Source: an uncultured Methanosarcinales archaeon (GTDB taxonomy: Archaea > Nanobdellota > Nanobdellia > Woesearchaeales > JAHWIC01). Taken from it: a stretch of DNA of 64,000 nucleotides. Below are positions 3,855-64,000 of the stretch, piece after piece; position 1 is the stretch's first letter, and each line of letters begins with the position of its first letter. The notes under the pieces were generated by a model that saw only the letters and a list, made by a program, of their open reading frames with translations, searched no databases and had not been told where the DNA came from. Location of the stretch: assembly GCA_964447855.1 (NCBI GenBank), contig CAYUUH010000001.1, positions 369 through 64,368 on the forward strand. Reading direction: 5' to 3'. Made by a program: the position numbers and the translations under genes.

Positions 3855-4061
3855 ATGCAACAAAAAAGAACATCACTCGTAGAAAGCATAACAAACACAC
3901 TACTTGGCTTGGTAGTTAATTTTTTACTTAGTTTAGCGATATATCCTATTTTAGGAATCCCCGTAAGGCTACACCAGAACCTAATAATAGTAGTTATCTT
4001 TACGGGCACTTCAATTTTAAGAAACTACATAGTAAGAAGATATTTTAATGGAAATGATTAA
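3855..4061 (+). CDS. small membrane protein (2 predicted transmembrane segments)
   Basis: 68-aa hydrophobic ORF. Its stop overlaps the next start in an ATGA arrangement. Confidence 0.4.
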   Translation: MQQKRTSLVESITNTLLGLVVNFLLSLAIYPILGIPVRLHQNLIIVVIFTGTSILRNYIVRRYFNGND

Positions 4062-5782: not shown

Positions 5783-5818
5783 TTTGTTTTTGTCAAATCT
5801 TTGTTTTACATTTGCCCT

Positions 5819-6876: not shown

Positions 6877-6968
6877 TGGAGGAATAGTCGGGTCTGATCA
6901 TCCGATGAAAAGGATAAGTGTCGAGTCCTTTCCTCCTTTTTTTCGACACAATACAAAACGACACAAGC

Positions 6969-26032: not shown

Positions 26033-26920
26033 GTGGCAAATATGAGAATTGGATTCGTTTATTTGATAATGTCTATTGTTAGACCAGATAGGTGTTATGT
26101 GGGCAGTTCTGTAGATTTGAGAGATAGGTGGAGTGGTCATAGGAGGAAACTTGCATTACAACAACATCATTCAGTAAAACTACAGAGGCATTTTAATAAG
26201 CATGGGTTGGATGATTTAATCTTTATAGTTATTGAAAAGATAGATGTTTTTAATCTTAATGATTTAATAAGGGTAGAGCAGTTTTATATTGATTTATTAA
26301 AACCTTACTTCAATATGTCTCCTACTGCGGGGAGTAATAAAAATTTGGAGCTTACACAAGAGCAGAGAGATAAGATGAACAAAAAACCGGTGTCTTTAGA
26401 GACAAGAGAAAAACAAAGACAGGCTAAATTAGGTAAAAAAAGAGGTTCTCCATCAGAAGAAACCAGAAGAAAAATGAGGGAAAGTAATCTAGGGAGGAAA
26501 GTAAGCCCTGAGACCATTTTAAAACTATCTGAGTCTCATAAGGGCAAGAAACCAACAAAAGAACAGATAGAGAAAAACAGACTTTCTAATACGGGGAAGA
26601 AACAGAAAATAGAGTCTGTCGCAAAAACACTGCTAACAAAAGAAGGGATAGAGCATACTGATGAAAATATAAATATAATGATATTGCGTATTTTAGAAAA
26701 AAGGGAGAGTAAAAAGAATAAAAGAAGTGCAGAGGAAATAAATAAAAGGAAAAGTGAGATATTAAAAAAATATTTCATAGAACATCCAGAGGCTCGTGAT
26801 CATTTAAGCAAGATACAGAAGGGGAGAAAAATGTCCGATAAGGCTATTGAAAACATGAAAATAGGACAAAAGACAAGGAGGGATAAGGAAAGGCTAAATA
26901 GGGAAAATGGTGTTATTTAA
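26033..26920 (+). CDS. GIY-YIG homing endonuclease with tandem NUMOD3-like DNA-binding repeats
   Basis: GFVYLI...CYVGSSVDLRDRWSGH is the GIY-YIG signature. Repeated T.E.R.K...G motifs follow. Paralog of 34305-35000. Confidence 0.75.
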   Translation: MANMRIGFVYLIMSIVRPDRCYVGSSVDLRDRWSGHRRKLALQQHHSVKLQRHFNKHGLDDLIFIVIEKIDVFNLNDLIRVEQFYIDLLKPYFNMSPTAGSNKNLELTQEQRDKMNKKPVSLETREKQRQAKLGKKRGSPSEETRRKMRESNLGRKVSPETILKLSESHKGKKPTKEQIEKNRLSNTGKKQKIESVAKTLLTKEGIEHTDENINIMILRILEKRESKKNKRSAEEINKRKSEILKKYFIEHPEARDHLSKIQKGRKMSDKAIENMKIGQKTRRDKERLNRENGVI

Positions 26921-33894: not shown

Positions 33895-34305
33895 ATGGCA
33901 AGCAGGATTCCAAAGGAAGTTAAGTTAGAGATTGTAACAAGATGGCTTCCAGCAACAGAACCAACATGGAAAGTTGCATTATTTTTAAGCACAAGCAACT
34001 GTAATACTGACGGTGTGTTACTCTATTCGGCATGTACTAATGAGGTAGCATCAGGTGGAGGTTATACTACCGCAGGAGAAACACTGACAGGTAGGGCAGT
34101 AGCGTACATAGAAACCACCAATGCTAGAATAGATGCTGATGACACACCATGGACTTCAGCTACATTCACCGCTAGGTATGCAGTTGTATACGAAACAGCA
34201 ACAAGCAAGATAAGGGCGGTGTATGACTTTCTTGCAGATAAGTCGGTGACGGGTGGAACTTTCACTATACAGTGGAACGCATCGGGATTATGTAAAATAA
34301 GTTAA
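33895..34305 (+). CDS. hypothetical protein
   Basis: 136 aa. Confidence 0.4.
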   Translation: MASRIPKEVKLEIVTRWLPATEPTWKVALFLSTSNCNTDGVLLYSACTNEVASGGGYTTAGETLTGRAVAYIETTNARIDADDTPWTSATFTARYAVVYETATSKIRAVYDFLADKSVTGGTFTIQWNASGLCKIS

Positions 34306-35000
34306 TGGCTTACGATAGAATATCTGGTATTTATCAAATTAAATCGGTGATTTACCCCGAAAGAATCTATATTGGTAGTGCTGTTGATTTTCGTAAGCGG
34401 TGGAGAGAACATAAATTGGACTTAAGAAAGGGGCAGCATAAGAATCCCATATTACAAAACCATGTGAATAAGTATGGGATTGGCGACCTTATTTTCTCTA
34501 TTACGGAGGAGTGTTCTCGTGAGTCCCTTTTAGACAGAGAGCGTTATTATATAAAACTACTTGATCCCTTTTTTAATATATTAAAAGATGATATTACCCG
34601 CCCCACCGATCTTTCTGGGGAAAAGAATCCTTTTTATGGGAAACATCATACAGATGAAACAAAGGCTATATTAAGAGAACTTAAAACAGGGACACGTCAT
34701 ACTGAGGAAACAAAAAGAAAGTTTAGCGAAGATAGAAAAGGTCATAGACCTTATGGAATGTCCATCGAAGGGAGAAAAAGTGTTGGTGAAAAAAATAAAG
34801 TTCATATGAATGAGTTTTATCAGACCGAAGCGGGGATAGATTATAAGAAACGACTCCCAGATATAGCGAGAGAGATTAGAAAGATGGACACAGAGGAGAC
34901 CAAGCAAAAAAGGGCAGATTCCATAAAAAAAACTTATAAAAAAAAGGCTATTGGTAAGTTAATATCTGTTTTATTAGAAATTAAGGGGGTCGTAGTATGA
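34305..35000 (+). CDS. GIY-YIG homing endonuclease with NUMOD3-like repeats (second copy)
   Basis: SGIYQIKSVIYPERIYIGSAVDFRKRWREH. GEKNPFYGKHHTDETK...TGTRHTEETKRKFSE. Confidence 0.75.
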   Translation: MAYDRISGIYQIKSVIYPERIYIGSAVDFRKRWREHKLDLRKGQHKNPILQNHVNKYGIGDLIFSITEECSRESLLDRERYYIKLLDPFFNILKDDITRPTDLSGEKNPFYGKHHTDETKAILRELKTGTRHTEETKRKFSEDRKGHRPYGMSIEGRKSVGEKNKVHMNEFYQTEAGIDYKKRLPDIAREIRKMDTEETKQKRADSIKKTYKKKAIGKLISVLLEIKGVVV

Positions 35001-48568: not shown

Positions 48569-48586
48569 AATAGATTAAAAGCGATA

Positions 48587-48610
48587 GGGGCTGATTTTCG
48601 CCCCTTTTTG
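48587..48610. terminator. intrinsic terminator at the convergence point (GGGGC/GCCCC stem followed by TTTTTG)
   Basis: ggggctgattttcgcccctttttg. Confidence 0.5.
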
Positions 48611-48668: not shown

Positions 48669-49751
48669 TTATTTAATATACTCACTATCACTCCCCACTG
48701 AGTTAATCATTAAATGCACATCAAAGGATAGCACCGGAACAGATGCGTTACCTCCTGTGTTGTAAGGACAAGCACCCGCAAACTCTGTACTAGCATTTGT
48801 CGTATCCCTATATATTCTGAATTGAACTATATCTGATAGTGTTGTCCCTACGGGGACTGCTATTGCTGCTGCGTCAGATATCTGATGTATAGTTCCCGAT
48901 GTATATGGGAATATTAGGTCTGTACACTTTAGCTTAGTCCATGCCGTAGTCTTGGCACTACCGTTCTTCTGCCATCTATATTCTAGAAGTAGATTAGGTG
49001 TATAGTTCTTAGCTTGAAACCAGTGTATGTGAGGGTATATTGACGCTGTTAAGTCTCTGTCGTGGTTTAACTGAACATTCTTATAAAGGAAGTCTGCAAG
49101 TGCGGGGTTTACATTATAAGTAGCGTTATAAACAAGGTCTACTGTAGACTCTGCAAGGTTTATAGATACACCTGCTCCGTTAGACTGTAAGCCGAGTGCG
49201 TCCCCTAATTCATCACGCCATGGTCTTGCGTCTCCCGCCATAGTCTGATGACCATTGCTGTTTATATCTGTATAATTAACGCTAGTACCAAATCTCCCAC
49301 CCGTGGCAGTTATTGAATGAGTGCCAAGGTCTACATTCTGTAATGCACCCGTGTAAGGGACGTAGCCTATTCCACTGTCATCCCCTGAAAAGACTAACTC
49401 AAGAACTGTAGATATTAGTCCATTACCTGATTCTAATGCTACTCCTACTTTAAGATAAGGGTTATCTGCTGATTTAGCTATCTTACAAGTACCAAGACTT
49501 ACGTTGTCATTGCTCTTTGCCCCTCGTAATATATCATCCTTCAAGGTGTTGCCCTGAACTAAGACTTTAGCGGTGTCTCCTATGGTAGCTATCTTGCACT
49601 TTTGGCGGTATGGAACGGCTTCGGTCACACAGCCTATAGCACGGCTTGAATTAGGGATAGTGTACTCAAACGCATTGGGATTGGAACTTGATATCGAAAC
49701 CAAAGCCCCGACACGGCTCACAGATTTGGTATTATTGATGAGTGTTATCAT
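48669..49751 (-). CDS. fibre-like structural protein (Gly/Ser/Thr/Asn-rich)
   Basis: 360 aa with β-type composition, transcribed leftward. Confidence 0.45.
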   Translation of the reverse strand: MITLINNTKSVSRVGALVSISSSNPNAFEYTIPNSSRAIGCVTEAVPYRQKCKIATIGDTAKVLVQGNTLKDDILRGAKSNDNVSLGTCKIAKSADNPYLKVGVALESGNGLISTVLELVFSGDDSGIGYVPYTGALQNVDLGTHSITATGGRFGTSVNYTDINSNGHQTMAGDARPWRDELGDALGLQSNGAGVSINLAESTVDLVYNATYNVNPALADFLYKNVQLNHDRDLTASIYPHIHWFQAKNYTPNLLLEYRWQKNGSAKTTAWTKLKCTDLIFPYTSGTIHQISDAAAIAVPVGTTLSDIVQFRIYRDTTNASTEFAGACPYNTGGNASVPVLSFDVHLMINSVGSDSEYIK

Positions 49752-52754: not shown

Positions 52755-53225
52755 TTACTTGAAATTAAGGTTCGCAAATTCTCCGTGTATTTTAAACGCA
52801 ACTGCGTCTGCGGCTCTCGCAGCTTCCTCCTCTGTCTCAAAATAACCAAGCCAAATCTGTTTCCCGTCTATCCCTCTTATTTTTGCACATACTTTCCCAT
52901 TATCATAAGTCACATACCTATAACCGGAAGCCCCCGTAGGCTTTGAGTTAGCTGAATTTTGTTTGCGTGTACAATTTCTTAAATTAGATTTTTGGTTATT
53001 AAGCCCATTATGATCAATGTGGTCAACGACCATATTATTCGGGGTATTCATAATTAACCTGTGCATCCATACAGCACTCCATACTCCATTCGGACAAATA
53101 TTTCTAACTACATAAAACCCTCCCCCTGCGTCTAATCGTGCAAACCACTTCCATTGCATCAAAAAATCATAATCTTCATCATCAACCAATGCAAACTGCC
53201 CTCTGTTAAGTTTAATTTTCTTCAT
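52755..53225 (-). CDS. HNH-AP2 homing endonuclease (paralog of 6969-7484)
   Basis: MKKIKLNRGQFALVDDEDYDF...VDHIDHNGLNNQKSNLRNCTRKQN...YFETEEEAARAADAVAFKIHGEFANLNF. Confidence 0.8.
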   Translation of the reverse strand: MKKIKLNRGQFALVDDEDYDFLMQWKWFARLDAGGGFYVVRNICPNGVWSAVWMHRLIMNTPNNMVVDHIDHNGLNNQKSNLRNCTRKQNSANSKPTGASGYRYVTYDNGKVCAKIRGIDGKQIWLGYFETEEEAARAADAVAFKIHGEFANLNFK

Positions 53226-53985
53226 TATGTCGTTTTAAAATCATTGATATTCGTCTACGTGGACAAACCCAGTACTGTTTACCATTATCCCACAGTCCTG
53301 TCTGAGATAATCTTTCAAGGTAAAATAAAGCAGTCTTCTTGTCAAACAAAACCTCATCACCAATCCTTAAATCTTCGATATGGCTGTATTCAGTTCTAAT
53401 ATACGCTTTAGGGGCGTCGCCTATGAAAGTGATAATTCCCCTTGACTTATCTATTTGAGTGTCAGAAAACGCATCTAAATGGCTTTGTTTGGCAAAATAT
53501 ACGGGTTCACACAGGACAAAGCCGTTCAACATACCCGTTACTGTCTTTTTAGTCGGAGGAACTGCCCATTTATTGACATAGACTTCACGCTTGTAGCAAT
53601 AACAGTCAGCGTAGGGTACTGATTTATATAATTCACCTTCGCAAATCAACTGAACTGAATTTTTCGCCTCCAGCAATGAAAACCAAACCATATCATCTTC
53701 AACTAAATCTATGGTCGTTTCCCAATCTATACTCTTTGGGTCTTCGGGGTTGAAGTAAAGACCATGAGGCACTTTTGCCACGTAACCTATATTCTCTGCT
53801 AGGTTCGCTGAGTGGCTGTCATCGCCCTCCGCAAAAACCTCATCCTCCCGAAAGCCGATTACGACTCCCGCATTGGTACGCAACCCCTCAGCCCTGCGAG
53901 TGATTTTAATCAGCACATGGTTAAGAGGTATCTCTGCCCTCTCAAGTTCTTCTCTGGTTATTTCAATCTGTGGTCTTGTTGGCAT
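53212..53985 (-). CDS. hypothetical protein
   Basis: 257 aa. Confidence 0.4.
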   Translation of the reverse strand: MPTRPQIEITREELERAEIPLNHVLIKITRRAEGLRTNAGVVIGFREDEVFAEGDDSHSANLAENIGYVAKVPHGLYFNPEDPKSIDWETTIDLVEDDMVWFSLLEAKNSVQLICEGELYKSVPYADCYCYKREVYVNKWAVPPTKKTVTGMLNGFVLCEPVYFAKQSHLDAFSDTQIDKSRGIITFIGDAPKAYIRTEYSHIEDLRIGDEVLFDKKTALFYLERLSQTGLWDNGKQYWVCPRRRISMILKRHNEEN

Positions 53986-54262
53986 CTTTTTCTATATTAG
54001 TATAACATTCTACCACATCGGTATAATTTCCACCCATTCTGTCTGATACAAAAATAAGGTTTATGTGATCGCATCTATAACAGTATTGTACAATAGTCCA
54101 TGGTTCACTAGGGAGAATGACATTATTCTTAGTATCATCGCAATATGCGCAATGTTTACTACGCCTGCCAAAGTCCATATCTACTGCCTTGTCTAATTTA
54201 AAATTACCCTTAATTTCAAGCCAGTGTATCCTTTTACTTTCAAGGAATTTTCGTATTGTCAT
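53963..54262 (-). CDS. small Cys-rich (zinc-finger-like) protein
   Basis: CAYCDD...CYRCDH. Confidence 0.35.
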   Translation of the reverse strand: MTIRKFLESKRIHWLEIKGNFKLDKAVDMDFGRRSKHCAYCDDTKNNVILPSEPWTIVQYCYRCDHINLIFVSDRMGGNYTDVVECYTNIEKDANKTTD

Positions 54263-54494
54263 CTTCTTTCTTTATTTCTCTATAAAACAATTCACAATCA
54301 TCTGTAAAAGCAAAGTTATGAGTAAGACCTTCTTCAAAGGTTACTGTAATCCTTTTATTTCTTAGGGTGATCTTTTGTGGGGTCAATAACTGACCATCTA
54401 TCCACCCTTCTGAGCCTATGGTGTACTGCATGTACCTCGGTACGCCTTCTTCTGTCTGACTTTTGTCAAATTTTATGCGGTAGAGCTCTTTCAT
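54240..54494 (-). CDS. hypothetical small protein
   Basis: 84 aa. Confidence 0.35.
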   Translation of the reverse strand: MKELYRIKFDKSQTEEGVPRYMQYTIGSEGWIDGQLLTPQKITLRNKRITVTFEEGLTHNFAFTDDCELFYREIKKEDDNTKIP

Positions 54495-54668
54495 AACTCA
54501 GAGAACCAAATAAAAAGTCTTTCAAAAGTATCATCGCCTTCATCCCATGGATTAGCTATTGCGTAAAGCAACTGATATCCTGTATAAATCACCGCAGGTA
54601 TTATCCATATAGGGAATAAACATACCACGATAAGAACAATTAGTGTTTTTAAGTGCTTGTTCATAATG
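54495..54668 (-). CDS. 57-aa membrane protein, not in the ORF track
   Basis: Own translation MNKHLKTLIVLIVVCLFPIWIIPAVIYTGYQLLYAIANPWDEGDDTFERLFIWFSEL. Its start overlaps the stop of 54661-55350 and its stop overlaps the start of 54240-54494 (ATGA). Confidence 0.3.
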
Positions 54669-55350
54669 ATTTAAGTATTAGTTTTTCCTCCTCCGAAAGT
54701 ATATCATAAAACAACTTAGCATCTACTTCTTGTCTTTTTTTGAATACATTGAAGCTATTTAAGTTCTCTCTTGTCTTAACATCTACTATTATGTCTGAAA
54801 TTATGGCTTTAGTGGGCGCATGCTTAACGATCTCCTGCTGTGCCATAGCATCCATACCCCAACCTTTTGCTACTCTCCAAAGCGTCCATCCTGCCTCGTC
54901 AAGTATTCTCTTACTGACTGTTTTGCCTATACCGAGTAGAGCCTTACCTTGTAGTCTGACCATCTTACCCTTATCCCTGCCTTGCCCTGAGTAGAAATAA
55001 GCACTCTCTGTACCTATAAGGTCTATGCCTTTCTCTACTTGTTCAAGTGTTTTAAGGTAGTACTGTGTAGAGATTACATCGTCACTGCCCAATATCATAA
55101 CAGCATCAGCACATATAACTTCTCTCATGTAGTACATTGCGTGATTCCACTTCATACTCACTGGTTCATTAGGTCGTGTGACATGAGCAACACTCATTGA
55201 AAGGCAGAGGTTCTTGTCTTCTTCTCCCGACACAACACAGGCGGGGACAAAGATTTGGGTCTCCCTACGGATGCGCTGTATCTGTGCGAGCCAAAGACTA
55301 AGTATCTTTCGCCTTCCGTGGTTAATGGTTATGATGCCGAGGGACTTCAT
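54661..55350 (-). CDS. hypothetical protein, possibly a nucleotide-diphospho-sugar transferase fold
   Basis: 229 aa at the downstream end of the glycan cluster. Confidence 0.3.
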   Translation of the reverse strand: MKSLGIITINHGRRKILSLWLAQIQRIRRETQIFVPACVVSGEEDKNLCLSMSVAHVTRPNEPVSMKWNHAMYYMREVICADAVMILGSDDVISTQYYLKTLEQVEKGIDLIGTESAYFYSGQGRDKGKMVRLQGKALLGIGKTVSKRILDEAGWTLWRVAKGWGMDAMAQQEIVKHAPTKAIISDIIVDVKTRENLNSFNVFKKRQEVDAKLFYDILSEEEKLILKSL

Positions 55351-55685
55351 GATATCATTTCTGCAAGTTCAAATAACTCACGACACTCGTTAGCAAAATA
55401 TTCTTTATTTATTCGACTCTTTAATTCGCTAAGAGGATAACCCACAAACTTTACTCTCTCACACGGCCCAAAACAAGAGCAATGTCCCATATCATGCAGG
55501 TCATATAAGCTATCTCGCCTCATTAATAATTGACCACTCCCCTCGTAGGGCGCAGTAGAGTACCAATACCATATCTCATCAAGGTCTAAATCCTTTAGGC
55601 CATTGAGGTCATACTCGTCAAGAGTAGATAGCTCTCCGTATGCTTGATAGCCGTAAGGAAGTTTATTTAAGTAATGTATTTCCAT
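55347..55685 (-). CDS. hypothetical protein
   Basis: 112 aa. Confidence 0.35.
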   Translation of the reverse strand: MEIHYLNKLPYGYQAYGELSTLDEYDLNGLKDLDLDEIWYWYSTAPYEGSGQLLMRRDSLYDLHDMGHCSCFGPCERVKFVGYPLSELKSRINKEYFANECRELFELAEMIS

Positions 55686-55742
55686 AGCTTTAAGTTTTGA
55701 TTACACTGACAAATGTAAAACAGATAAATGAGAAATCCAAAT

Positions 55743-56390
55743 TTATTTTAAGAAATCTTTTATAATATCGTCATGGAGTTTATACGATTTGGTCATTCCC
55801 CATATTGTTTCTTTAGGACTTAGGTAGCCTACTATGCCCGCTCTATGCCCTGCAACCATAAGTTTGACTCCTTGCCGATGACAGGCACGGCTGAATAAGA
55901 CGTCAGCCATATTCGGATGAGGAAAATCTTGCATTGATAATTTGACCATTGATGTATCGAAGCAGAGAACCCCCGTTCCTGCGATGTCTATGACATGATC
56001 CCCGACCACAGAATTTAAGCATCTGTAGTTCTCTTTGAAGTATTTGAAGCCTCTCGGAGGTCGGTCATACCTTTTACCGTGCAGTGACACCGGACAGTTG
56101 TATTGAGCAACCTTCTCCCGCAAGAGCGAAAAGAACTCATCAGTATAAACTAGATCGTCATCACAAATGAAGACTAATCCTTCGACTTCATTGATAAACT
56201 CAAACTTATGAGCGTCTCCCTTACTATTGTCACACATCTTGAAAGTCACATTTGGAATGTCAAGTTCAGGAACAACAGCGTAGTTATTTAAAGCCACATA
56301 GATATGGTCTACATGAGGGGATATTGACTGCAATACAACAGGCAATAGGTTTCTTCTGTTTCCAAGGCTTGCTAAGTGTGCTGTTATCAT
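55743..56390 (-). CDS. glycosyltransferase (GT-A-like, DxD motif ICDDDL)
   Basis: 215 aa. Confidence 0.45.
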   Translation of the reverse strand: MITAHLASLGNRRNLLPVVLQSISPHVDHIYVALNNYAVVPELDIPNVTFKMCDNSKGDAHKFEFINEVEGLVFICDDDLVYTDEFFSLLREKVAQYNCPVSLHGKRYDRPPRGFKYFKENYRCLNSVVGDHVIDIAGTGVLCFDTSMVKLSMQDFPHPNMADVLFSRACHRQGVKLMVAGHRAGIVGYLSPKETIWGMTKSYKLHDDIIKDFLK

Positions 56391-57001
56391 CGGTGCATCA
56401 TACTACTATAATGTTCATCCTGAATAGTTATCAATGATTCCTTGACCTGGTAGAAGTGGAAGCCTTGTCTATTTAGCTTTCTGCTTATGTATGCACCCAC
56501 TCCGCTACTGCCTCTTATCTGACCATTAACCCTGTGTAGTGGTGGTATAACGCCCACCATAGCAAAGAACTTATCCTCGCAAAGAAAGCACATGTCCACC
56601 CATCCTGTCTGCCATACATTACCCTTATCAACGGGTAACATCCTTGTCCAACAAGACTGTCCTAGCCTATCCATATAGAGGTTTAAGCATATCTTTTGCC
56701 GGTCTTCAATGCCTTCCAATATCTCTATTGCCTTTGCAATTTGCGAATCGCAAACAAGGAAGTCATCAGGTATCATAAAGTAATAATTAGCCTGTGGTCT
56801 ATGCCTCCAAAGCATATTCACAAGTTTCCAATAGCCCAACTTACCAAGGTGTTGCTTAGGGTTGATATTAAGAGCCCCACTAATGCTATAATTATTCCCA
56901 TCATGTGCTACTATAACTTCTCCTAGTCCCTGTAAAGAATTAACAAGTCTTTGACAGGACTCTTGTCGGTTATAGGTCGTTATGAGGAAAGCTATGTCCA
57001 T
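56387..57001 (-). CDS. family 2-like glycosyltransferase
   Basis: AFLITTYNRQES and IPDD motifs. Confidence 0.5.
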   Translation of the reverse strand: MDIAFLITTYNRQESCQRLVNSLQGLGEVIVAHDGNNYSISGALNINPKQHLGKLGYWKLVNMLWRHRPQANYYFMIPDDFLVCDSQIAKAIEILEGIEDRQKICLNLYMDRLGQSCWTRMLPVDKGNVWQTGWVDMCFLCEDKFFAMVGVIPPLHRVNGQIRGSSGVGAYISRKLNRQGFHFYQVKESLITIQDEHYSSMMHR

Positions 57002-58245
57002 ATCTTAAGTGCGTCTTTATTATAATCATCTACATCTAGAGACACCTGCTCCCTTAGTGCCATATATCTTTCCTTTGGTATCTTGGGGCAAAAGTAATTA
57101 TGTGGACTTTGGTGGGAAAACAACGACATATCATAAGTATCATTGATTAGTCCCATAGCCTTTACCTCATCAAAAAGATCAGTTCCTTTATATGGAGTGA
57201 AAAAACTGAGTGTTATTCTAAATGGTTTCAGTGATTTAACAAAGGCTATTGATTCAAGTATAGAATCTTCTGTGTCATAGGGAAACCCTATAATCATATA
57301 TGCCTTCCATTGTACTTTATGTTTATTAAGTATTTCAGATGCTCTCATAAAATCACGGGTAGTCTCTCCCTTTTGAATAGCCTTAAGTGTTTCATTATCC
57401 CCGCTTTCTATACCCAAACTCATTTGTCCACACCCAGAGTTTTTCATCATCTGTACCATCTCGTCTGTGATAGAATCTGCACGTGTATCACACCTCCATA
57501 AGGCAGGGATATAATATTTAGAGCAGAACTCTACAAGACGCTTCTTATTTGCCGTAAATGTTTCATCCCAAAATGTAAAGTAATCAGACCCGAAGGAAAA
57601 ATGAACGTGTTTCATCTCTTCGAGTATTCTGTCTATTGACTTATAGGTAACTTTTCTATTCCACATAATCTTAGATGCACAAAAGGAACATCTAAAAGGG
57701 CATCCCCTTGTAGATAGAACATGTGCATAGCCATTAGGCGAATAAGTATCTAACAACAAGTCATAGTTTGGAAATGGGGTTTCGTCAAGATTCTTTAATC
57801 TCCCCCCATGGGATTCATATTCACCTCGAAAGACATCTACCCCATCGGGATAGACACTAGGTTCATTAGAAGGATGGTTCCCCCCCACTATCACAGGAAT
57901 ATTCCGACTCTTTGATATGTCAATAATTTTTAATGCAGATTGAAATTTTACATTAAGCACATTAATCCCAATTCTATCGGGGTATATATCATCAATAACA
58001 TTAACTAATTCTTGCCAAATATGGTGTTGTGGGTTATGGAGTGCATCACGGTAGATGTCATAATGGTTGGCTCTCTCAGAATATCCCGCATAATGTACAT
58101 TTTGCCCCACCTCCATATTCTTAATATAAACATCATCTCCGTCTGATGACATCTGTGACCCCACCGCTAAGAGAGATAAGGGGACATAATCTTGCTCCAA
58201 TCCTAAAAAACGATAAAACGGGGGGTTAATAAGAAGTGTTTTCAT
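56992..58245 (-). CDS. cobalamin-binding-domain (class B) radical SAM enzyme
   Basis: CPFRCSFC is a CxxxCxxC cluster. An N-terminal B12-binding-like Rossmann segment precedes it. Confidence 0.7.
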   Translation of the reverse strand: MKTLLINPPFYRFLGLEQDYVPLSLLAVGSQMSSDGDDVYIKNMEVGQNVHYAGYSERANHYDIYRDALHNPQHHIWQELVNVIDDIYPDRIGINVLNVKFQSALKIIDISKSRNIPVIVGGNHPSNEPSVYPDGVDVFRGEYESHGGRLKNLDETPFPNYDLLLDTYSPNGYAHVLSTRGCPFRCSFCASKIMWNRKVTYKSIDRILEEMKHVHFSFGSDYFTFWDETFTANKKRLVEFCSKYYIPALWRCDTRADSITDEMVQMMKNSGCGQMSLGIESGDNETLKAIQKGETTRDFMRASEILNKHKVQWKAYMIIGFPYDTEDSILESIAFVKSLKPFRITLSFFTPYKGTDLFDEVKAMGLINDTYDMSLFSHQSPHNYFCPKIPKERYMALREQVSLDVDDYNKDALKIWT

Positions 58246-58246
58246 T

Positions 58247-59311
58247 CTAACATCCTAAAACAAGCCTTATGACGGTATCTGATACATTATCTTTTTTATA
58301 ATCAGGCAATACTTCCCATCTCATAAATAAGTTCTTAATATTATGATAAGACCTTAGTATAGTTGGTGTATCTGTACCCGCAAGAATAAGAGAACCATTC
58401 TCTGTCAATTCTTGTCTCTCCGTGGTATTTCTAAGCACTATGCACGGCACTCCGAATAAAGAACACTCCTCTGGTACTGTACCTGAATCAGTAAAGACAA
58501 GACTTGCATATTTCTCAAGTTTAACAAAATCAAAGAATCCGAGTGGTTCAATAATCTGAATATTGGGGTGTAGTTCTATCCCGTTAGCATTAAGTCTGTC
58601 TTTTGACCTTGGATGAAGCGGATAGATTATCTTATTATTTTCAGCTATGTAGTTAATCGCTTTAAATATACTCTCAGTCCTCGTAGGGTTATCAACATTA
58701 TCGGCACGGTGAAGCGTCAGTAATATGTAATCTTTATGGTGAAGCGTCAATTTACCGAGAATAGAGCTATTATCAATACTTAAGGAGTAATAATCAAGCA
58801 CCTCTTTAATCGGATTACCTATCTTAAATGTTTTGTTCTTTGAATACCCTTCTCTTATCAGATTGTCATAAGAGTTATCTGTGTATGGTAGGTTGTAATA
58901 AGAGTGTGAATCAATAATCCTTCTATTGGTTTCTTCTGGAACATCTAAATCATAACACCTATTACCCGCCTCAAGGTGAATAACCTTAATCTTACGTTTG
59001 GTTGCAAGAATTGATAGAAGTCCTGAATTGGTATCGCCAAGGGTAACTATCTTCTCTGGCATGAACTCATTAAGTATCTTCTCTAACTCGGCGAAACCAT
59101 TACTAAGGAAAGCACCCAAAGATTGCTGTTGACTAAAAATATAGTCAGCCTTTCTTATTTTGAGTTCTGAAAAGAACAAGTCACTAAGGCGTGTATCGAA
59201 GTTCTGATTAGTAAAAAGTAGCTTATGGTCACAGACGTTATCTAGCTTTCTGATTATAATAGAAAGTCTAATAAGTTCTGGGCGTGTGCCGACAATAGTT
59301 AAAACCCTCAT
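58247..59311 (-). CDS. UDP-N-acetylglucosamine 2-epimerase family (WecB / FnlC / WbvD-like, non-hydrolysing)
   Basis: MRVLTIVGTRPELIRLSIIIRKLD N-terminal signature. 354 aa. Confidence 0.7.
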   Translation of the reverse strand: MRVLTIVGTRPELIRLSIIIRKLDNVCDHKLLFTNQNFDTRLSDLFFSELKIRKADYIFSQQQSLGAFLSNGFAELEKILNEFMPEKIVTLGDTNSGLLSILATKRKIKVIHLEAGNRCYDLDVPEETNRRIIDSHSYYNLPYTDNSYDNLIREGYSKNKTFKIGNPIKEVLDYYSLSIDNSSILGKLTLHHKDYILLTLHRADNVDNPTRTESIFKAINYIAENNKIIYPLHPRSKDRLNANGIELHPNIQIIEPLGFFDFVKLEKYASLVFTDSGTVPEECSLFGVPCIVLRNTTERQELTENGSLILAGTDTPTILRSYHNIKNLFMRWEVLPDYKKDNVSDTVIRLVLGC

Positions 59312-60330
59312 AAGCCTAAGTCTTGTTTGATAATGTCTAAACCCAAGAGCATAGCCTTAGTTTCTTCAAGAGTAAGTCTCTTTGTGTTATGAGACGTGTA
59401 CTCTACCTCTTGTTCGTTATTTCCTTCAACAAAGTACTTGGCGTAGTTTAGGTCTCTTGTGTCTGAAAAAATCCTGTAGTAAATGCCTATATCAGCCGAG
59501 TTTGCCATTTCTTCCGCATTTAAGAGCGTTTCAAAGAGTTTCTCCCCGTGTCTAGTACCTATCACCCGAATTGGGTTAGATACGCCATAAACGCTTAAAA
59601 TAGCCTCTGCGAGGGTTTGTATTGTACAGGCAGGTGCTTTATGTACAAAGGTATCTCCATTACCACCATTCTCATAAGCATAAACAACAAGGTCAACAGC
59701 CTCTTCAAGTGTCATCATAAACCTCGTCATGTCGGGATTGGTTATGGTCAGCGGTCTACCCTCTTTTATCTGTTTAATAAAAAGTGGAATAACAGAACCC
59801 CTTGACGCCATCACATTGCCATACCTAGTTGCACAGAAAGATATTCCTTCGGGAAGGTTTCTAGACTTAGCTAGCATAACCCTCTCTGCAAGTGCCTTTG
59901 TCATACCCATAGCTGATGATGGATAACACGCCTTATCCGTTGAAAGGACTATTACTTTGTTGACACTGTTTTTAATTGCAGAGTCAAGCACATTCTCAGT
60001 GCCTATAATATTAGTCTTAACCGCCTCGATAGGGAAGAACTCACAGGATGGTACTTGCTTTAGTGCGGCAGCATGAAAGACAAAATCAACACCTTTCATA
60101 GCTTCATCAACACTACGGAGACTTCTTACATCACCTATGTAGTATTTTATCTTTGGGTTATTATACTGCCACCTGATATCTTCTTGTTTCTTCTCGTCCC
60201 TGCTAAAGATGCGAATCTCTTTAAGGTCAGAGTTTAAAAATCTATCGAGTACGGCATTGCCAAATGAACCCGTACCCCCTGTAATGAGCAATACTCTATC
60301 TTTGAACATTCCTTTTGAATAAGTTAACAA
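59308..60330 (-). CDS. UDP-GlcNAc 4,6-dehydratase/5-epimerase, CapE/FnlA/WbvB family
   Basis: ILITGGTGSFGNAVL...EIRIFSRDEKKQ...HAAALKQVPSCEFFPIEAVKTNIIGTENVL. Confidence 0.8.
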   Translation of the reverse strand: MLTYSKGMFKDRVLLITGGTGSFGNAVLDRFLNSDLKEIRIFSRDEKKQEDIRWQYNNPKIKYYIGDVRSLRSVDEAMKGVDFVFHAAALKQVPSCEFFPIEAVKTNIIGTENVLDSAIKNSVNKVIVLSTDKACYPSSAMGMTKALAERVMLAKSRNLPEGISFCATRYGNVMASRGSVIPLFIKQIKEGRPLTITNPDMTRFMMTLEEAVDLVVYAYENGGNGDTFVHKAPACTIQTLAEAILSVYGVSNPIRVIGTRHGEKLFETLLNAEEMANSADIGIYYRIFSDTRDLNYAKYFVEGNNEQEVEYTSHNTKRLTLEETKAMLLGLDIIKQDLGL

Positions 60331-60535
60331 ACCAACCTAATATTGGGGTTGCCCCCATGGGTCTTACACCCATATTATAATGTCTACATTCCTCGCATGG
60401 GGTAAGTAGTGTCATTCCAGATGTATCAACCTCTGTGCAGTCAAGCATCTCTCCCACATGAGGACATGTGTTGCAGTTCTCCGAGTTCATAAGCCCACAA
60501 TAGGCTTCGCAATAAGTAGAGTACGGACATTTCAT
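60296..60535 (-). CDS. small Cys-rich ORF between the reductase and dehydratase genes (uncertain)
   Basis: 79 aa with 9 Cys. Spans an otherwise 200-bp gap. Confidence 0.2.
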   Translation of the reverse strand: MKCPYSTYCEAYCGLMNSENCNTCPHVGEMLDCTEVDTSGMTLLTPCEECRHYNMGVRPMGATPILGWFVNLFKRNVQR

Positions 60536-61350
60536 AGCTTATAGTTTTTTTGTTCAACAATCTGATCATATATTGACGGTATATCAAATAATAGTGGGTA
60601 TTTAGACGAAAGAGTTCTGTCACAAAAGATAGCATCTTTTTCTACAATCCGATTCCCTAGTTTATAAACATCATTAATAATACTCACAAGCTGTGCCTTA
60701 CTTACGGAGTCGGGCGAAAAGACGTGTCTCGTACCATGAAAGAAGAAATACTCGCTGATTATCTTCTCACATATCTTAGCAAACTGTAAACATGTAATGC
60801 CATTCCAAAAATGGTTAGTATAGCCTGTTATTGTGGTATTTTCGTGCGACCTAACCCACTCAAGCAGATCGCTACAGTTATTGGTAGTCTCTCCAATAAT
60901 AGAAGTTCTTATCACGGTACAGTTCTGTGGTTCACCAAGAGACTTACTAAGTCCATAGATAGAAACCTCATTCTTAACGCTATCCTCATTATAATTACCG
61001 TCCTTCCCCGTGTAAACACAATCAGTTGTTATATGAATCATGTTTGCGCCTACTTCTTCACAGTAATCGGCAAGTATCCTTGGAAACAAAGAATTAGCAA
61101 TAAGAAAATCACTGTCAGGACATACTCTCTTATTAGTAATACCAATGCAGTTTATGACAACATCTCCCTGTTTAATATTAAGCCAATCAAGTTGGTTATG
61201 CAAGCCCTGTGTATCGAGGACATTAAGTTGTTTCCTTGTTACCGGCTCAGACCTTTTTAAGTAAGAGTGGACATATCTGCCCAACATCCCTTTAGCTCCT
61301 AAAACAAATGTTCTATTTCTCATTTCCTGTTTTATATTCTGATTGACCAA
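60532..61350 (-). CDS. RmlD/WbvR-like NAD(P)H-dependent 4-keto-6-deoxysugar reductase
   Basis: VLGAKGMLG Rossmann motif, YGLSKSLGE YxxxK motif, RTSII. Confidence 0.6.
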   Translation of the reverse strand: MVNQNIKQEMRNRTFVLGAKGMLGRYVHSYLKRSEPVTRKQLNVLDTQGLHNQLDWLNIKQGDVVINCIGITNKRVCPDSDFLIANSLFPRILADYCEEVGANMIHITTDCVYTGKDGNYNEDSVKNEVSIYGLSKSLGEPQNCTVIRTSIIGETTNNCSDLLEWVRSHENTTITGYTNHFWNGITCLQFAKICEKIISEYFFFHGTRHVFSPDSVSKAQLVSIINDVYKLGNRIVEKDAIFCDRTLSSKYPLLFDIPSIYDQIVEQKNYKL

Positions 61351-62014
61351 TGCCTATGTTTACTGCGTACTCATCGTCTATTAAAACTGCTGTGCGATAA
61401 CCTAATCTATGGTAGGCTTCTCCTATTGCATACTCCTTATGCCAAATAGTAGGTTTACTCCACGAACCCGTATATCTTATATCCGAGTAAGGCGCTACCT
61501 TTTTATAGTCTGAGAGGCGTTTTAAGCCACAAGCAGTAGCGAACCCATGCCAACCATTATCGTAGCCTTCAAAGCCCTTAAATATGTTTTCTGAGGCAAG
61601 CCTAAAAGGAACGCCATAAGCAACAAACACATCCTTGTCCATTGGGTGATTATTATAGTCTTTAAGCCACACTTCCTCTATCTCTGCACGTTGCCTCATA
61701 ATAGCCAAAGACTTCTCAATAAATTCACCCCTTGTAACCATCCAATCATCTTCACAATGAAAAAAATATTCTGTTTTAATATGAGCATAACCGAGGTCAA
61801 TACTTTTCATCAGCCCGACATTCTCTTTATTTAAAACAAGGGTAAAGTCGGGATAAGACTCCTTAAGTTGAAGGTGGATATCCTCGTCTGCCGAGTCATT
61901 TACAATGATTATTTCAGATATTGGATAGTTATTATGATCAATAAAGGCATCTATTGTACGCCTTAATAATCCTATCCTTCTGCAAGAAAAAAATATAGCT
62001 GTTACTGGTTCCAT
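61313..62014 (-). CDS. glycosyltransferase (GT2-like: IIIVNDSAD, CEDDW)
   Basis: 233 aa. Confidence 0.45.
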   Translation of the reverse strand: MEPVTAIFFSCRRIGLLRRTIDAFIDHNNYPISEIIIVNDSADEDIHLQLKESYPDFTLVLNKENVGLMKSIDLGYAHIKTEYFFHCEDDWMVTRGEFIEKSLAIMRQRAEIEEVWLKDYNNHPMDKDVFVAYGVPFRLASENIFKGFEGYDNGWHGFATACGLKRLSDYKKVAPYSDIRYTGSWSKPTIWHKEYAIGEAYHRLGYRTAVLIDDEYAVNIGIGQSEYKTGNEK

Positions 62015-62105
62015 ATTTATTAATAAATTAAGTCTCTATTGTATGGTATTTCATACATTACTTACTGATTTCGTATTTAATGTATCAAATATCAGTCTAT
62101 TTTTA

Positions 62106-63083
62106 TTAGTAACGTCTGTTTTTCTGCCACTCATAGGCTGATTTCAATATCTCGTCCAGTCCTCTCTTGGGCGTCCATCCAAGTAAAGACTTTGCCTTAG
62201 TTGAGTTAGAAACAATCTCTGACGGGTCTCCCTTGCGTGGGGGGGCTATTGTATAAATAATCTTCTTGCCTGTCATCTGTTCTACTGCATGTATGATTTC
62301 AAACACACTATATCCCTGCTCATGTCCTAAGTTGTAGATTTGATTCTTGACATCTTCATTGTGCATCTTAGCCATGGCAAGAAGGTGTGCATCTGCAATA
62401 TCAAGTACATGGAAGTAGTCTCTAATTCCCGTCCCATCCCTTGTTGGAAATTTATCTCCATAAACTACAAGTGGTTTGTCGTTGTAGATAGCCTTCCTTA
62501 CAACCTGGGGGATAAGATGCGTTTCTTCCCTTCTCGCCTCGCCATGTCTTTCTGATGCTCCTGCCACGCAGAGATAACGGAATATAATATAGTTAAGGTC
62601 ATAAGCCACGCTAAGGTCTCTCAGTATTTGCTCTACCATTAACTTAGAAGTTCCATAGGGGCAAATAGGTATCTGCGGATGGTTCTCATCCATGGGATTG
62701 TATTGTGGCTCTCCAAACACTGCTGCCGTAGAAGTAAATATTATATTCTTAACCTTATGCTTAACCATGTGGTGTAAGAGGGTAAGCGTCTGTGCCGTAT
62801 TATTGTGGTAATAAAGACATGGATTAACAACAGAATTAGATACATGAGCAGATGCCGCCAAATGAATGACAAAATCTATCTTATACTCTCCGAATACCCA
62901 ATTCAAAACATTAGGATTAGCAAAGTTCTCTTTAAAAAACAAAGCCCTATTATCTACCGCCTCTTTATTACCAGTACTGAGATCATCAAGCACAATAACG
63001 GAGAAACCGCTTTGGATTAAAACCTCTGTGACTACTGAACCTATGTAGCCTCCACCACCTGTGATTAAGACTTTTTTCTTCAT
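62106..63083 (-). CDS. UDP-hexose 4-epimerase, GalE/Gne family
   Basis: VLITGGGGYIGS...YGTSKLMVEQILRDL. Confidence 0.75.
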   Translation of the reverse strand: MKKKVLITGGGGYIGSVVTEVLIQSGFSVIVLDDLSTGNKEAVDNRALFFKENFANPNVLNWVFGEYKIDFVIHLAASAHVSNSVVNPCLYYHNNTAQTLTLLHHMVKHKVKNIIFTSTAAVFGEPQYNPMDENHPQIPICPYGTSKLMVEQILRDLSVAYDLNYIIFRYLCVAGASERHGEARREETHLIPQVVRKAIYNDKPLVVYGDKFPTRDGTGIRDYFHVLDIADAHLLAMAKMHNEDVKNQIYNLGHEQGYSVFEIIHAVEQMTGKKIIYTIAPPRKGDPSEIVSNSTKAKSLLGWTPKRGLDEILKSAYEWQKNRRY

Positions 63084-63625
63084 AACTTATTAAAGCATAA
63101 AATTGTGTTAGAAAACCAAGGTAGTGTACTATGTGACCTGAGTAACGTAGATGTTTTCGCATCATAAGTAAACCCACGCTTCTCTACCTCTGATATAACA
63201 TAATCGTTATTCTGGCAGTTTACATGACCTGTTCCTCCCTGACCAACAATAGCCCAACTCATACATATATGTCTTGATGCTGACTTGCAAATATTGTCAA
63301 TAAATACCTGCTCGTATTCTTTTGGGATGTGTTCTCCCACCTCAAGGCATAAGATAAGTTCAAAAAGACCAACATCAGTAGGTATAGAGAAGTCTCTTAC
63401 GCTACATTGACCATTAGTTATCTGAGATGTAAGGGGATTCCCGTCAAAACCAACACAAAAGATACCATGATCGAGAAAAAACTTAGTATAACTGCCATCA
63501 CCGCATCCTATATCAACTATTGAATTAACATCATAGGCTTGCATTATAGCGTAATTTAGGCTTTTATCCCACATGTGGGTTTTAATTTCGTCTTCTGAAG
63601 TCCAGTAACCGTGGTCGTGTATCAT
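63080..63625 (-). CDS. class I SAM-dependent methyltransferase
   Basis: VDIGCGDGSYT (motif I). Confidence 0.6.
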   Translation of the reverse strand: MIHDHGYWTSEDEIKTHMWDKSLNYAIMQAYDVNSIVDIGCGDGSYTKFFLDHGIFCVGFDGNPLTSQITNGQCSVRDFSIPTDVGLFELILCLEVGEHIPKEYEQVFIDNICKSASRHICMSWAIVGQGGTGHVNCQNNDYVISEVEKRGFTYDAKTSTLLRSHSTLPWFSNTILCFNKL

Positions 63626-63645
63626 CGAATATTTTATTTAAGTTA

Positions 63646-64000
63646 TTATAGTTCATCATACAAAGGTAGACTTCTTATGTATTCCGAATTATTTATTAAG
63701 CAAGATGGACGTTCTTTCATATAATTAGCCGGATTAAGGTCGTTATAAAGGTAGATAACCTCTTCGATAAACTTGGTATGTTTTGCACCTGCCATCTCAA
63801 GCATAGGATACATAAATGATTGGTCAGTAGCCCCAACAAGATAATTTCCTACTGTATCACGTAAATCCTTATCTTCAATCTTATCCCACAACCACTTTTT
63901 CCATGTCTTAAGGTGGCTTGTTCTCCATGCCCCACTTCTGCGATAAGTCCTGTGGTCAGGGATTGGGGTGCAATAATTATGATAAGTATGGCTCATTGGC
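63646..64000 (-). CDS. hypothetical protein, probably the C-terminal part of a longer gene running off the window
   Basis: Open minus-strand frame to the window edge. Confidence 0.3.
   Translation of the reverse strand, partial: PMSHTYHNYCTPIPDHRTYRRSGAWRTSHLKTWKKWLWDKIEDKDLRDTVGNYLVGATDQSFMYPMLEMAGAKHTKFIEEVIYLYNDLNPANYMKERPSCLINNSEYIRSLPLYDEL

Follow-up and report, generated by a model that had tools for sequence, protein, structure and literature searches.

A phage-borne glycan-synthesis block with a conserved glycosyltransferase core and an exchangeable sugar cassette in an uncultured tailed phage with Bacteroidota-type promoters

The 64,000-nucleotide stretch analyzed here (the window) was taken from contig CAYUUH010000001.1 of GenBank assembly GCA_964447855.1, which is filed under an uncultured Methanosarcinales archaeon. 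From about 54.5 kb to its right-hand end the window contained a block of genes predicted to make sugar nucleotides and to assemble them into a glycan. All of these genes were located on the minus strand. Enzymes dependent on S-adenosylmethionine (SAM) and sugars carried on uridine diphosphate (UDP) recur throughout; GlcNAc and HexNAc denote N-acetylglucosamine and N-acetylhexosamine, and labels beginning with L denote contigs retrieved for comparison. From left to right the block comprised:

54491-54664, minus strand: small hydrophobic open reading frame (ORF) of 57 aa, ATGA-coupled on both sides
54661-55350, minus strand: core glycosyltransferase GT229, predicted GT-A fold (AlphaFold2, pLDDT 94.7; Foldseek against the PDB)
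55347-55685, minus strand: 112-aa ORF (ORF list)
55743-56390, minus strand: core glycosyltransferase GT215 (PDB matches: GlcNAc-transferase domain of heparosan synthase B, 8vh7, 2e-14; KfiA, 1.5e-8)
56387-57001, minus strand: core glycosyltransferase GT204, predicted GT-A fold (AlphaFold2, pLDDT 92.1; Foldseek against the PDB)
56992-58245, minus strand: radical SAM enzyme with B12-binding domain, 417 aa (Radical_SAM PF04055, 1.4e-22, 81 bits)
58247-59311, minus strand: CapG/FnlC/WbvD-type UDP-6-deoxy-L-HexNAc 2-epimerase, 354 aa (Epimerase_2, 4e-79)
59308-60330, minus strand: CapE/FnlA/WbvB-type UDP-GlcNAc 4,6-dehydratase/5-epimerase (Polysacc_synt_2 PF02719, 4e-100; Polysacc_syn_2C PF08485, 3e-18)
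60296-60535, minus strand: putative Cys-rich 79-aa ORF between the reductase and dehydratase genes, in ATGA overlap with the reductase stop codon
60532-61350, minus strand: RmlD-type NAD(P)H reductase, 272 aa (RmlD_sub_bind, 2.7e-17, N-terminal 145 residues only)
61313-62014, minus strand: family-2 glycosyltransferase GT233, 233 aa (PF00535, 6e-9; 63% identical to an L003 gene)
62106-63083, minus strand: GalE-type UDP-hexose 4-epimerase, 325 aa (TIGR01179, 367 bits vs a cut-off of 262; Pfam Epimerase, 7e-53)
63080-63625, minus strand: class I SAM methyltransferase, 181 aa (Methyltransf_23, 4e-6, exactly at the cut-off; PHROG methyltransferases, about 4e-4)
63646-64000, minus strand: family-2 GT-A glycosyltransferase GT240, 240 aa, with its C-terminal 117 aa in the window (full gene on L001; PF00535)

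The initial annotation, made from the sequence alone, had named a CapE/FnlA/WbvB-type dehydratase, an RmlD/WbvR-like reductase, a 2-epimerase and a GalE-type 4-epimerase, and family and structure searches bore out all four. For the dehydratase the FnlA model TIGR04130 was the best NCBIfam model, 200 bits ahead of PseB, with a score (501 bits, 1.3e-150) under the curated cut-off of 730. The best solved structures were A. baumannii FnlA (4j2o, 4e-137) and S. aureus CapE (7e-134), and Bacteroidales homologues were up to 71% identical. The 2-epimerase scored above the cut-off of the non-hydrolysing epimerase model TIGR00236 (241.5 bits vs 210) and was far nearer to CapG (7ya2, 3e-77, the best solved structure) than to E. 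coli WecB (1e-32). The PDB matches of the reductase were RmlD reductases (best 3e-11), and the CapF/FnlB/WbjC-type reductase model NF047837 gave no match to it. Internal ATG codons were taken as the likely true start of the dehydratase (60309) and the probable true start of the reductase (61323).

In size and place, the reductase fitted the WbvR/Mg535 type, which is RmlD-like, of about 270 aa and encoded beside an FnlA-type dehydratase; by homology it would be a 3-epimerase/4-reductase, that is, a synthase of UDP-N-acetyl-L-rhamnosamine (UDP-L-RhaNAc). In total, 67 of 80 bacterial FnlA loci contained a CapG-type epimerase and 11 contained an RmlD-like reductase homologue (33-35% identity) directly beside FnlA; one more such homologue was found beside an FnlA-like gene on phage contig L010. 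In V. cholerae O37, WbvB, WbvR and WbvD form the reference route from UDP-GlcNAc through UDP-L-RhaNAc to UDP-N-acetyl-L-quinovosamine (UDP-L-QuiNAc), and a pathway giving UDP-6-deoxy-L-HexNAc products was reportedly described by Kneidinger and colleagues in 2003. By homology to characterized enzymes, the FnlA/CapE-type enzyme would convert UDP-GlcNAc to a 4-keto-6-deoxy-L intermediate, the RmlD-type reductase would yield UDP-L-RhaNAc from it, and the CapG/WbvD-type epimerase would yield UDP-L-QuiNAc; GalE would supply a 4-epimerised UDP-hexose or UDP-HexNAc. The gene set thus fits the UDP-2-acetamido-2,6-dideoxy-L-hexose product (UDP-L-RhaNAc/L-QuiNAc) that the initial annotation had predicted, with a reductase of the RmlD type (WbvR/Mg535-like).

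Four or five GT-A glycosyltransferases had been expected in the block and five were found: two Pfam family-2 enzymes (GT233 and GT240), one KfiA-related enzyme (GT215, presumably a member of CAZy family GT45) and two found by structure prediction (GT204 and GT229). Sequence-only searches with GT204 and GT229 (Pfam, PHROGs, NCBIfam and phmmer against the PDB, plus a profile search for GT229) either found nothing or gave spurious matches, armadillo repeats among them; the predicted structures identified both as GT-A enzymes. Foldseek matched GT204 to POMGnT1 (7e-9), B4GALNT1, KfiA, ppGalNAc-Ts and TarP, and GT229 to WrtF (9e-9), AvpGT, BcsA, RmlT, TarP and EXTL2. The invariant residues G88-S89-D90-D91 of GT229 are read as a DxD-like motif. 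Homologues of GT229 were 74-87% identical in L114-L116, those of GT204 65-66% identical in L115/L116 (with 189 metagenomic homologues altogether), and those of GT215 61-74% identical in L114-L116 and 37-41% identical in L003 and L006. GT240 resembled the family-2 enzyme encoded directly upstream of the radical SAM gene in L002/L004 (54-56% identity) and in L003 (41-42%). Outside the block, one additional enzyme was found near the other end of the window:

5801-6859, plus strand: family-2 glycosyltransferase, 352 aa (PF00535, 9e-19; PHROG "GtrB-like O-antigen conversion", 6e-9), beside the first of two HNH-type homing endonuclease genes and upstream of the terminase

This gene probably belongs to the same system, because its L006 orthologue directly follows a GroES-like gene. 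Just beyond 64 kb, L001 encoded one further family-2 glycosyltransferase and a putative methyltransferase, the SAM-binding motif of which was recognized by eye only. The glycosyltransferase total was therefore at least seven.

The cobalamin-type radical SAM enzyme and the SAM methyltransferase of the initial annotation were likewise recovered as Pfam domains. The radical SAM enzyme matched the class B (cobalamin-dependent) design, in which an N-terminal B12-binding domain (PF02310, 7e-8, 32.8 bits, barely above the cut-off of 32.1) precedes the radical SAM core, and its CxxxCxxC motif reads CPFRCSFC. All NCBIfam subfamily models scored far under their cut-offs, the best being HpnJ (109 bits vs 578); the nearest were HpnJ, PhpK, BchE, AprD4 and a ladderane-lipid enzyme. 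Homologues in phage contigs L002-L004 were 72-74% identical. In L003 a gene adjoining that of the radical SAM enzyme encoded a protein 51% identical to the 181-aa methyltransferase. Both enzymes, like GT233 and GT240, were shared with other phage contigs. In the proposed pathway, the soluble GT-A transferases would join the sugars into an oligosaccharide, and the methyltransferase(s) and the B12-radical SAM enzyme would tailor the glycan by O- or C-methylation or another radical step.

Gene junctions within the block were ATGA-type overlaps, including that shared by the 2-epimerase and dehydratase genes. The block had been described as free of intergenic gaps; the ATGA overlaps and the 57-aa ORF stood up, and three short gaps were found at 55686-55742 (57 nt), 62015-62105 (91 nt) and 63626-63645 (20 nt). 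The description of these genes as translationally fused to ordinary phage genes did not stand: they overlap or are coupled. The 112-aa ORF, before which the 57-nt gap lies, had no credible family match in Pfam or PHROG, and the 79-aa ORF had no family match and no homologue in the fetched loci.

The window belongs to a tailed phage, with a terminase and a portal found. The terminase had distant relatives in podophages of Flavobacterium and Cellulophaga, and one window ORF matched the crAss muzzle-protein domain (crAss_MUZ_C, Pfam). An NCBI contig of 72,964 bp records three proteins identical to window ORFs and is probably the whole phage genome, of about 73 kb. The Bacteroidota -7 promoter motif TAnnTTTG was enriched in the window (87 observed vs 62 +/- 7 expected), which supports a Bacteroidota host, as the initial annotation had assumed; matches to sigma-70 promoters were at or below shuffle expectation. 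Within the glycan block TAnnTTTG occurred at 55710 and 55738, both in the 57-nt gap, and at 63661. Its octamer variant TATCTTTG recurred ahead of many gene starts, at distances of a few to about 90 nt, for example:

6869, 7492, 8647, 11735, 15508, 21713, 24749, 26929 and 45647, plus strand: TATCTTTG (motif scan)
49757 and 50266, minus strand: TATCTTTG (motif scan)

The block was continuous with the phage genome in composition. Tetranucleotide correlation between the cassette and the structural region was 0.93 (0.92-0.96 among chunks of the same region), and the correlation of relative synonymous codon usage was 0.92, with no codon-usage break. A tRNA scan of the window found no tRNA in the block; the sole tRNA was a tRNA-Met (CAT) at 1146-1217 (plus strand), in a region near the window start rich in TAnnTTTG. 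Genes from 52.7 to 55.7 kb overlap continuously, which leaves no intergenic room for a phage attachment (att) site. An independent Logan contig, L001, reproduced 62.1-65.8 kb exactly and ran about 1.8 kb past the window end, where it encoded the rest of GT240, another family-2 glycosyltransferase and a 175-aa protein with a SAM-binding motif. The exact 51-mer of the window end did not occur in IMG/VR or JGI contigs, and looking up exact protein sequences yielded short Logan contigs at most. The glycan block is part of a tailed-phage genome of about 73 kb with Bacteroidota-type promoters.

Searches seeded with the core glycosyltransferases, the radical SAM enzyme and the GroES-like protein recovered uncultured contigs related to the block. 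Core-bearing relatives came from IMG/VR (L003, L006 and L118) and from Logan/ENA (L114-L116 and L122-L124), and represented different samples. The core order was kept in these relatives: GT204, GT215, GT229 and two further genes, which in the window are:

54240-54494, minus strand: conserved 84-aa core protein (homologues in the same position in L003, L114-L116, L118, L123 and L124)
53212-53985, minus strand: GroES/Cpn10-like co-chaperonin, 257 aa (six homologues with PF00166, one of them named co-chaperonin GroES by its source)

In every relative that extended far enough, the GroES-like gene followed the GT229 homologue with only small ORFs in between, and the closest relatives also shared the next 341-aa and 192-aa genes. 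Upstream of the core, each relative contained a different sugar cassette:

L114: GT25, GT32, GT11 and UDP-glucose dehydrogenase
L115: methyltransferase, GT11, GT25, GT32, GT10 and epimerase
L116, L123 and L124: KAS-III, MaoC, acetyltransferase, FdtA, DegT and GT2
L122: GT11, GT6, GT2, DegT and epimerases
L006: GDP-mannose dehydratase and a GT10-like gene
L003: GT32, GT2, GT10, two FkbM methyltransferases, radical SAM enzyme and methyltransferase
L118 and the remaining L006 and L003 ORFs (combined scan): DegT, WbqC, TPP-dependent and ATP-grasp enzymes

The FnlA/reductase/CapG trio with GalE was found only in the window and in none of the related contigs. The upstream end of the cassette was visible in L122 and L123, where it abutted small phage genes. 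A conserved core downstream of a freely exchanged sugar-nucleotide and tailoring cassette is the design of the whole lineage. Single insertions into cassettes were also seen: L123 carried a GIY-YIG gene within the sugar cassette, and L116 (7228-7533) a 101-aa PF04447 protein (dATP/dGTP pyrophosphohydrolase, MazZ-like). An extra, normal-sized 90-aa Cpn10 gene stood at the far cassette border of L114 (424-696) and L122 (2347-2619).

Searches of GenBank phages did not recover the system. Neither GT229 nor GT204 had a tblastn match in 50,697 GenBank phage records, and megablast of 54-64 kb against GenBank phages found no match. FnlA/CapG matches occurred only in unannotated, seemingly host-contaminated phage records:

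OR849864.1 and OR844989.1: "Staphylococcus phage SA ... Kay" (e.g., "SA 1298 Kay")

These records look host-derived because their CapE- and CapG-like matches are separated by about 1 kb, the spacing expected of the cap operon of S. aureus; two bacterial whole-genome shotgun records were also present within the GenBank phage collection. Parts of the pathway did recur in unrelated uncultured phage contigs of IMG/VR: L010 contained a glycosyltransferase, the RmlD-like reductase and an FnlA-like gene adjoining a tape-measure gene, and L007 a CapG-like gene, FnlA, a methyltransferase and a multidomain glycosyltransferase. The statement that such pathways are unusual in bacteriophages is accurate for GenBank phage records, with parts of the pathway known to recur in these uncultured phage contigs. 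A literature search returned nothing specific on this phage lineage or on such cassettes in phages of Crassvirales or Flavobacteriia.

One alternative to a phage-borne system is that the block is an assembly chimera or a host polysaccharide locus beside a prophage. In its favor, Bacteroidales genes reach 71% identity to the dehydratase, the window ends within the cluster so that the far boundary lies outside it, and an integrase is present. Against this, core and cassette lay between phage genes in independent assemblies (L003, L006, L114-L116, L118 and L122-L124), with phage genes on the far side as well in L122 and L123; the composition was unbroken, the block was without tRNA, the genes from 52.7 to 55.7 kb left no room for att, and L001 reproduced the right-hand end exactly. 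A host locus or chimera is largely refuted and essentially excluded. The claim that the block is phage-borne was thus upheld, and the related phage contigs in which it had been suggested to look for the same block carried the cassette in phage context.

Downstream of the core, the leftward genes continued to a terminator at 48.6 kb:

52755-53225, minus strand: HNH-AP2 homing endonuclease (HNH_3, 3e-7; AP2, 6e-6)
48669-49751, minus strand: tail-fibre-like protein, 360 aa, the last gene of the leftward unit containing the cassette
48586-48605, no strand: bidirectional intrinsic terminator, the hairpin richest in G-C pairs (5) among those resembling terminators in 47-64 kb

This terminator lies between convergent gene ends, where the leftward unit, from the cassette to the tail-fibre-like gene, meets the rightward structural module. 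It was the only strong terminator in 47-64 kb, and none was found between the cassette and the tail-fibre-like gene. The N-terminal ~125 aa of the 360-aa protein were 63-80% identical in L114/L116 and the C-terminus was unrelated; it is regarded as tail-fibre/receptor-binding-like because of this conserved N-terminus and variable C-terminus. The 257-aa GroES-like protein reads, from its homologues, as a phage (head) morphogenesis chaperonin directly coupled to the cassette. It had also been considered as a glycan acceptor and was rejected as such, being GroES-like.

Homing endonucleases were plentiful in the window, with two HNH-type genes (6918-7484 and 52755-53225, the AP2 domain being Pfam-confirmed only for the latter) and two GIY-YIG/NUMOD3 genes (26033-26920 and 34305-35000). 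Among 52 further ORFs scanned, Pfam matches included ART-PolyVal (ADP-ribosyltransferase of polyvalent proteins), Fib_succ_major, IG_AIR9 and DUF6808.

Window ORFs of 70 aa or more were scanned at E<=1e-3, and cassette and neighbouring ORFs at E<=0.01; the data cover all but about 7 kb of the presumed 73-kb genome. Pfam and NCBIfam searches found no Wzx, Wzy, priming transferase, ligase or ABC exporter domain in the block. Nor was any such domain found in the 2.2 kb beyond the window end or in the cassettes of L003, L006, L114-L116, L118 and L122-L124, and no polytopic membrane protein or transmembrane-like hydrophobic segment was found in any cassette enzyme of the window or the relatives. 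The initial annotation had likewise seen no Wzx, Wzy, initiating phosphoglycosyltransferase or export genes, and within this scope its observation held.

These results bear on whether the glycan is destined for the host envelope. The soluble glycosyltransferases would then act on undecaprenyl-phosphate-linked O-antigen or capsule intermediates of the host and would use its priming transferase, flippase and polymerase/ligase; infected or lysogenised cells would display a new glycan, resulting in superinfection exclusion, decoy debris or serotype conversion. We consider this unlikely, while giving it more weight than any other alternative. A lysogenic phase is suggested by one further gene:

20438-21361, plus strand: tyrosine integrase (Pfam), inside the structural module between the portal-proximal and probable capsid genes

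The phage may be temperate: L114 and L118 also carried an integrase, and that of L114 (44% identical) sits elsewhere in its genome. The PHROG match of the 5801-6859 glycosyltransferase to GtrB-like O-antigen conversion, the clustering of close homologues of the three sugar-pathway enzymes in bacterial genomes and the resemblance of the hypervariable cassettes to O-antigen and capsular polysaccharide loci all point in the same direction. So does TarP among the fold matches of GT204 and GT229, as TarP is a prophage-encoded soluble GT-A enzyme that modifies wall teichoic acid (10.1101/2023.12.21.572611). Envelope remodelling is opposed by the absence of any membrane protein, flippase, polymerase, ligase or priming transferase from the cassettes of the window and the same relatives. 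Nor is the cassette a separate moron: it overlaps the gene for the head co-chaperonin, with no terminator between it and the tail-fibre-like gene further on. It is wholly phage-like in composition, and at least seven glycosyltransferases would build a whole glycan and not modify one.

Phage DNA was weighed as a second acceptor. Under this explanation, sugars made by the phage's own donor pathway would be placed as a mono- to oligosaccharide on hydroxylated or hydroxymethylated pyrimidines and would shield the DNA from restriction and other nucleases. The additional family-2 glycosyltransferase adjoins the terminase, the MazZ-like PF04447 gene lies within the L116 cassette, and one window gene is of a kind sometimes tied to nucleic-acid modification:

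4048-4824, plus strand: phosphoadenosine phosphosulfate (PAPS)-reductase-like protein, 258 aa (PHROG 424 "phosphoadenosine phosphosulfate reductase", 8e-38; no Pfam match)

Phage biosynthetic gene clusters are known to place mono-, di- and trisaccharides on 5-hydroxymethylcytosine via GT-A and GT-B enzymes, some of them near terminase or structural genes (10.1101/2023.12.21.572611), and the DNA of RB69 and DLP3, both of which encode UDP-arabinose biosynthesis genes, contains polyarabinosylated 5-hydroxycytosine (PMC13326640). The known routes, however, need a ThyA homologue or a C5-methyltransferase with 5mYOX, and Pfam searches found no ThyA, TET/JBP or C5-methyltransferase in the 52 further window ORFs or the scanned loci of relatives, an absence that covers all but ~7 kb of the genome and is incomplete to that extent. 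The cassettes, with five to nine glycosyltransferases, aminotransferases, acyl-chain and ATP-grasp enzymes and several methyltransferases, also far exceed described DNA glycan pathways. DNA hypermodification is accordingly regarded as improbable.

Slightly more improbable still is a free or lipid-anchored glycoconjugate distinct from virion, DNA and host surface polymer, for instance a glycolipid or a small metabolite that is glycosylated in the course of infection. The nearest models of the radical SAM enzyme (HpnJ, PhpK, AprD4 and the ladderane-lipid enzyme) act on small molecules or lipids, the cassettes of relatives hold KAS-III, MaoC, SDR and HAD genes, and the nucleoside glycosyltransferase AvpGT was among the fold matches of GT229. 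No scaffold-forming enzyme was found, however, and the acyl-chain genes adjoin FdtA, DegT and acetyltransferase genes, a combination typical of N-acylated amino sugars in glycans. The conserved core of three glycosyltransferases argues for a common macromolecular acceptor.

Our preferred reading, which we hold tentatively and with slightly less than even confidence, is a cytoplasmic glycan-assembly system that acts late in infection and most likely decorates virion proteins. A virion acceptor is favored because all of the enzymes are soluble, because the cassette is coupled to morphogenesis genes in a late-type organization, because a conserved core is combined with a variable periphery, and because giant viruses offer a precedent. 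The genes to which it is coupled are those of the head co-chaperonin and of a tail-fibre-like protein whose N-terminus is conserved. A phage-encoded acceptor would receive an invariant inner glycan from the three core glycosyltransferases and a lineage-specific outer part from the variable cassette; these steps, drawn from gene context, are the weakest of the scheme. The acceptor would most likely be a virion protein, so that progeny particles gain a variable glycan coat. One candidate for an O-glycan acceptor, put forward as speculation, is encoded upstream of the terminase:

7569-8081, plus strand: 170-aa protein with a poly-Thr/Ser C-terminal tail, TGTTTSTTTTEQR

The Thr/Ser tail was kept in the orthologues of L003 (12825-13373) and L006 (13645-14223) and was absent from the adjacent paralogue at 8092-8577; the protein had no Pfam, PHROG or PDB match.

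Several points weigh against virion glycosylation. No acceptor was identified among the genes seen, and the late timing is read from gene order only. The fold matches (PDB and BFVD) fit protein, lipid-linked, teichoic-acid or nucleoside acceptors alike. With an integrase present, lysogenic surface conversion is possible, and genes for a ThyA/TET homologue or for membrane components could lie in the ~7 kb outside the data. In bacterial genomes, mostly metagenome-assembled genomes of Bacteroidota and Bacillota, the dehydratase has homologues that cluster with those of the reductase and 2-epimerase wherever the latter were found. Going by the named characterized clusters, such bacterial loci are polysaccharide loci, in which soluble glycosyltransferases act on undecaprenyl-linked acceptors.

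A fuller version of virion glycosylation, which we put forward with less assurance than the virion acceptor itself, is that the virions of this widespread lineage of uncultured Bacteroidota phages carry a serotype-like glycan coat: the three core glycosyltransferases would prime a structural protein, and exchanged cassettes would add strain-specific outer glycans, here L-RhaNAc/L-QuiNAc with methyl and radical SAM tailoring. Such a coat would be the tailed-phage counterpart of the Mimivirus and chlorovirus glycan machineries and would imply that selection diversifies the phage surface, for instance in response to glycan-binding defences of the host, to grazers or to mucus/immune recognition. 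About 12 kb of a ~73-kb Bacteroidota phage is given to glycan synthesis. A core with a swappable cassette is normally linked to O-antigen or capsule serotypes, and here every export component is absent from the genes seen. If the glycan is on the virion, the lineage makes the diversity of phage-surface glycans genetically accessible in a Gram-negative system, and offers a source of soluble glycosyltransferases for rare 6-deoxy-L-HexNAc sugars and of a B12-radical SAM enzyme that is 72-74% conserved across differing cassettes. If it is on the host envelope or the DNA, the system would be exceptionally large for its kind.

Giant eukaryotic viruses are well documented to encode glycan synthesis that is independent of the host; in phages such synthesis is known from a few mycobacteriophages, on virion proteins, and from DNA hypermodification. 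The present system is not a new kind of system, because virus-encoded glycan machineries are known. In bacteria, the pathways to these sugars are part of Wzx/Wzy- or ABC-dependent loci, along with genes for priming transferases and export. The block differs from such O-antigen or capsule loci in that no priming, export or polymerase gene was found in the sequence scanned, which covers all but ~7 kb of the genome. The DNA hypermodification clusters (Pyle et al. 2023/2024; Lee et al. 2026) likewise contain several GT-A enzymes, sometimes with phage sugar-nucleotide genes and sometimes near terminase or structural genes; they differ in having an acceptor-base enzyme (ThyA, or C5-methyltransferase with 5mYOX), which was not found here, and the present cassettes are larger and chemically more diverse.

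Mycobacteriophages share the phage-encoded glycosyltransferases and infect a different group of hosts, the Actinobacteria. Their glycosyltransferases, and methyltransferases, are said by Freeman and colleagues (in 2023) to act in the cytoplasm on virion proteins. To our knowledge, these systems have few glycosyltransferases and neither a complete rare-sugar pathway nor a radical SAM enzyme. They are unrelated in sequence, the core glycosyltransferases being without a tblastn match among the GenBank phages searched. Capsid and tail-tube subunits of mycobacteriophages are reported to bear these glycans C-terminally (as cited in PMC12619734).

Among bacteria, WbvB/R/D (V. cholerae O37), WbjB/C/D (P. 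aeruginosa O11) and CapE/F/G (S. aureus) contain a homologous dehydratase and 2-epimerase, and the 11 bacterial loci noted above share the RmlD-type reductase directly next to FnlA. The bacterial route to N-acetyl-L-fucosamine differs in its CapF/FnlB-type reductase, which is absent here. The products predicted here are the same UDP-6-deoxy-L-HexNAc sugars as those of the bacterial pathways (PMC9614988).

The closest analogue is the Mg534-Mg536 cluster of Megavirus chilensis. Mg534, Mg535 (270 aa) and Mg536 make UDP-L-RhaNAc and UDP-L-QuiNAc and are clustered with several glycosyltransferases; the virion fibrils are glycosylated, with 4-OMe-L-RhaNAc among the sugars, and glyco-gene clusters differ between Mimivirus clades (PMC9614988). 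Megavirus is a giant virus with fibrils and a eukaryotic host, whereas the window derives from a ~73-kb tailed phage of Bacteroidota, and virion glycosylation is proven there and only inferred here. The window dehydratase matched the Mg534 structure (4tqg) at 1.4e-50, with bacterial FnlA/CapE far closer (1e-137), and the window cluster adds GalE, the B12-radical SAM enzyme and the conserved core of three glycosyltransferases. The two systems are alike in the three-step set of a 4,6-dehydratase/5-epimerase, an RmlD-like reductase of about 270 aa and a WbvD-like 2-epimerase clustered with glycosyltransferases, and cluster content differs between related viruses of the Mimivirus genus as the cassettes do here.

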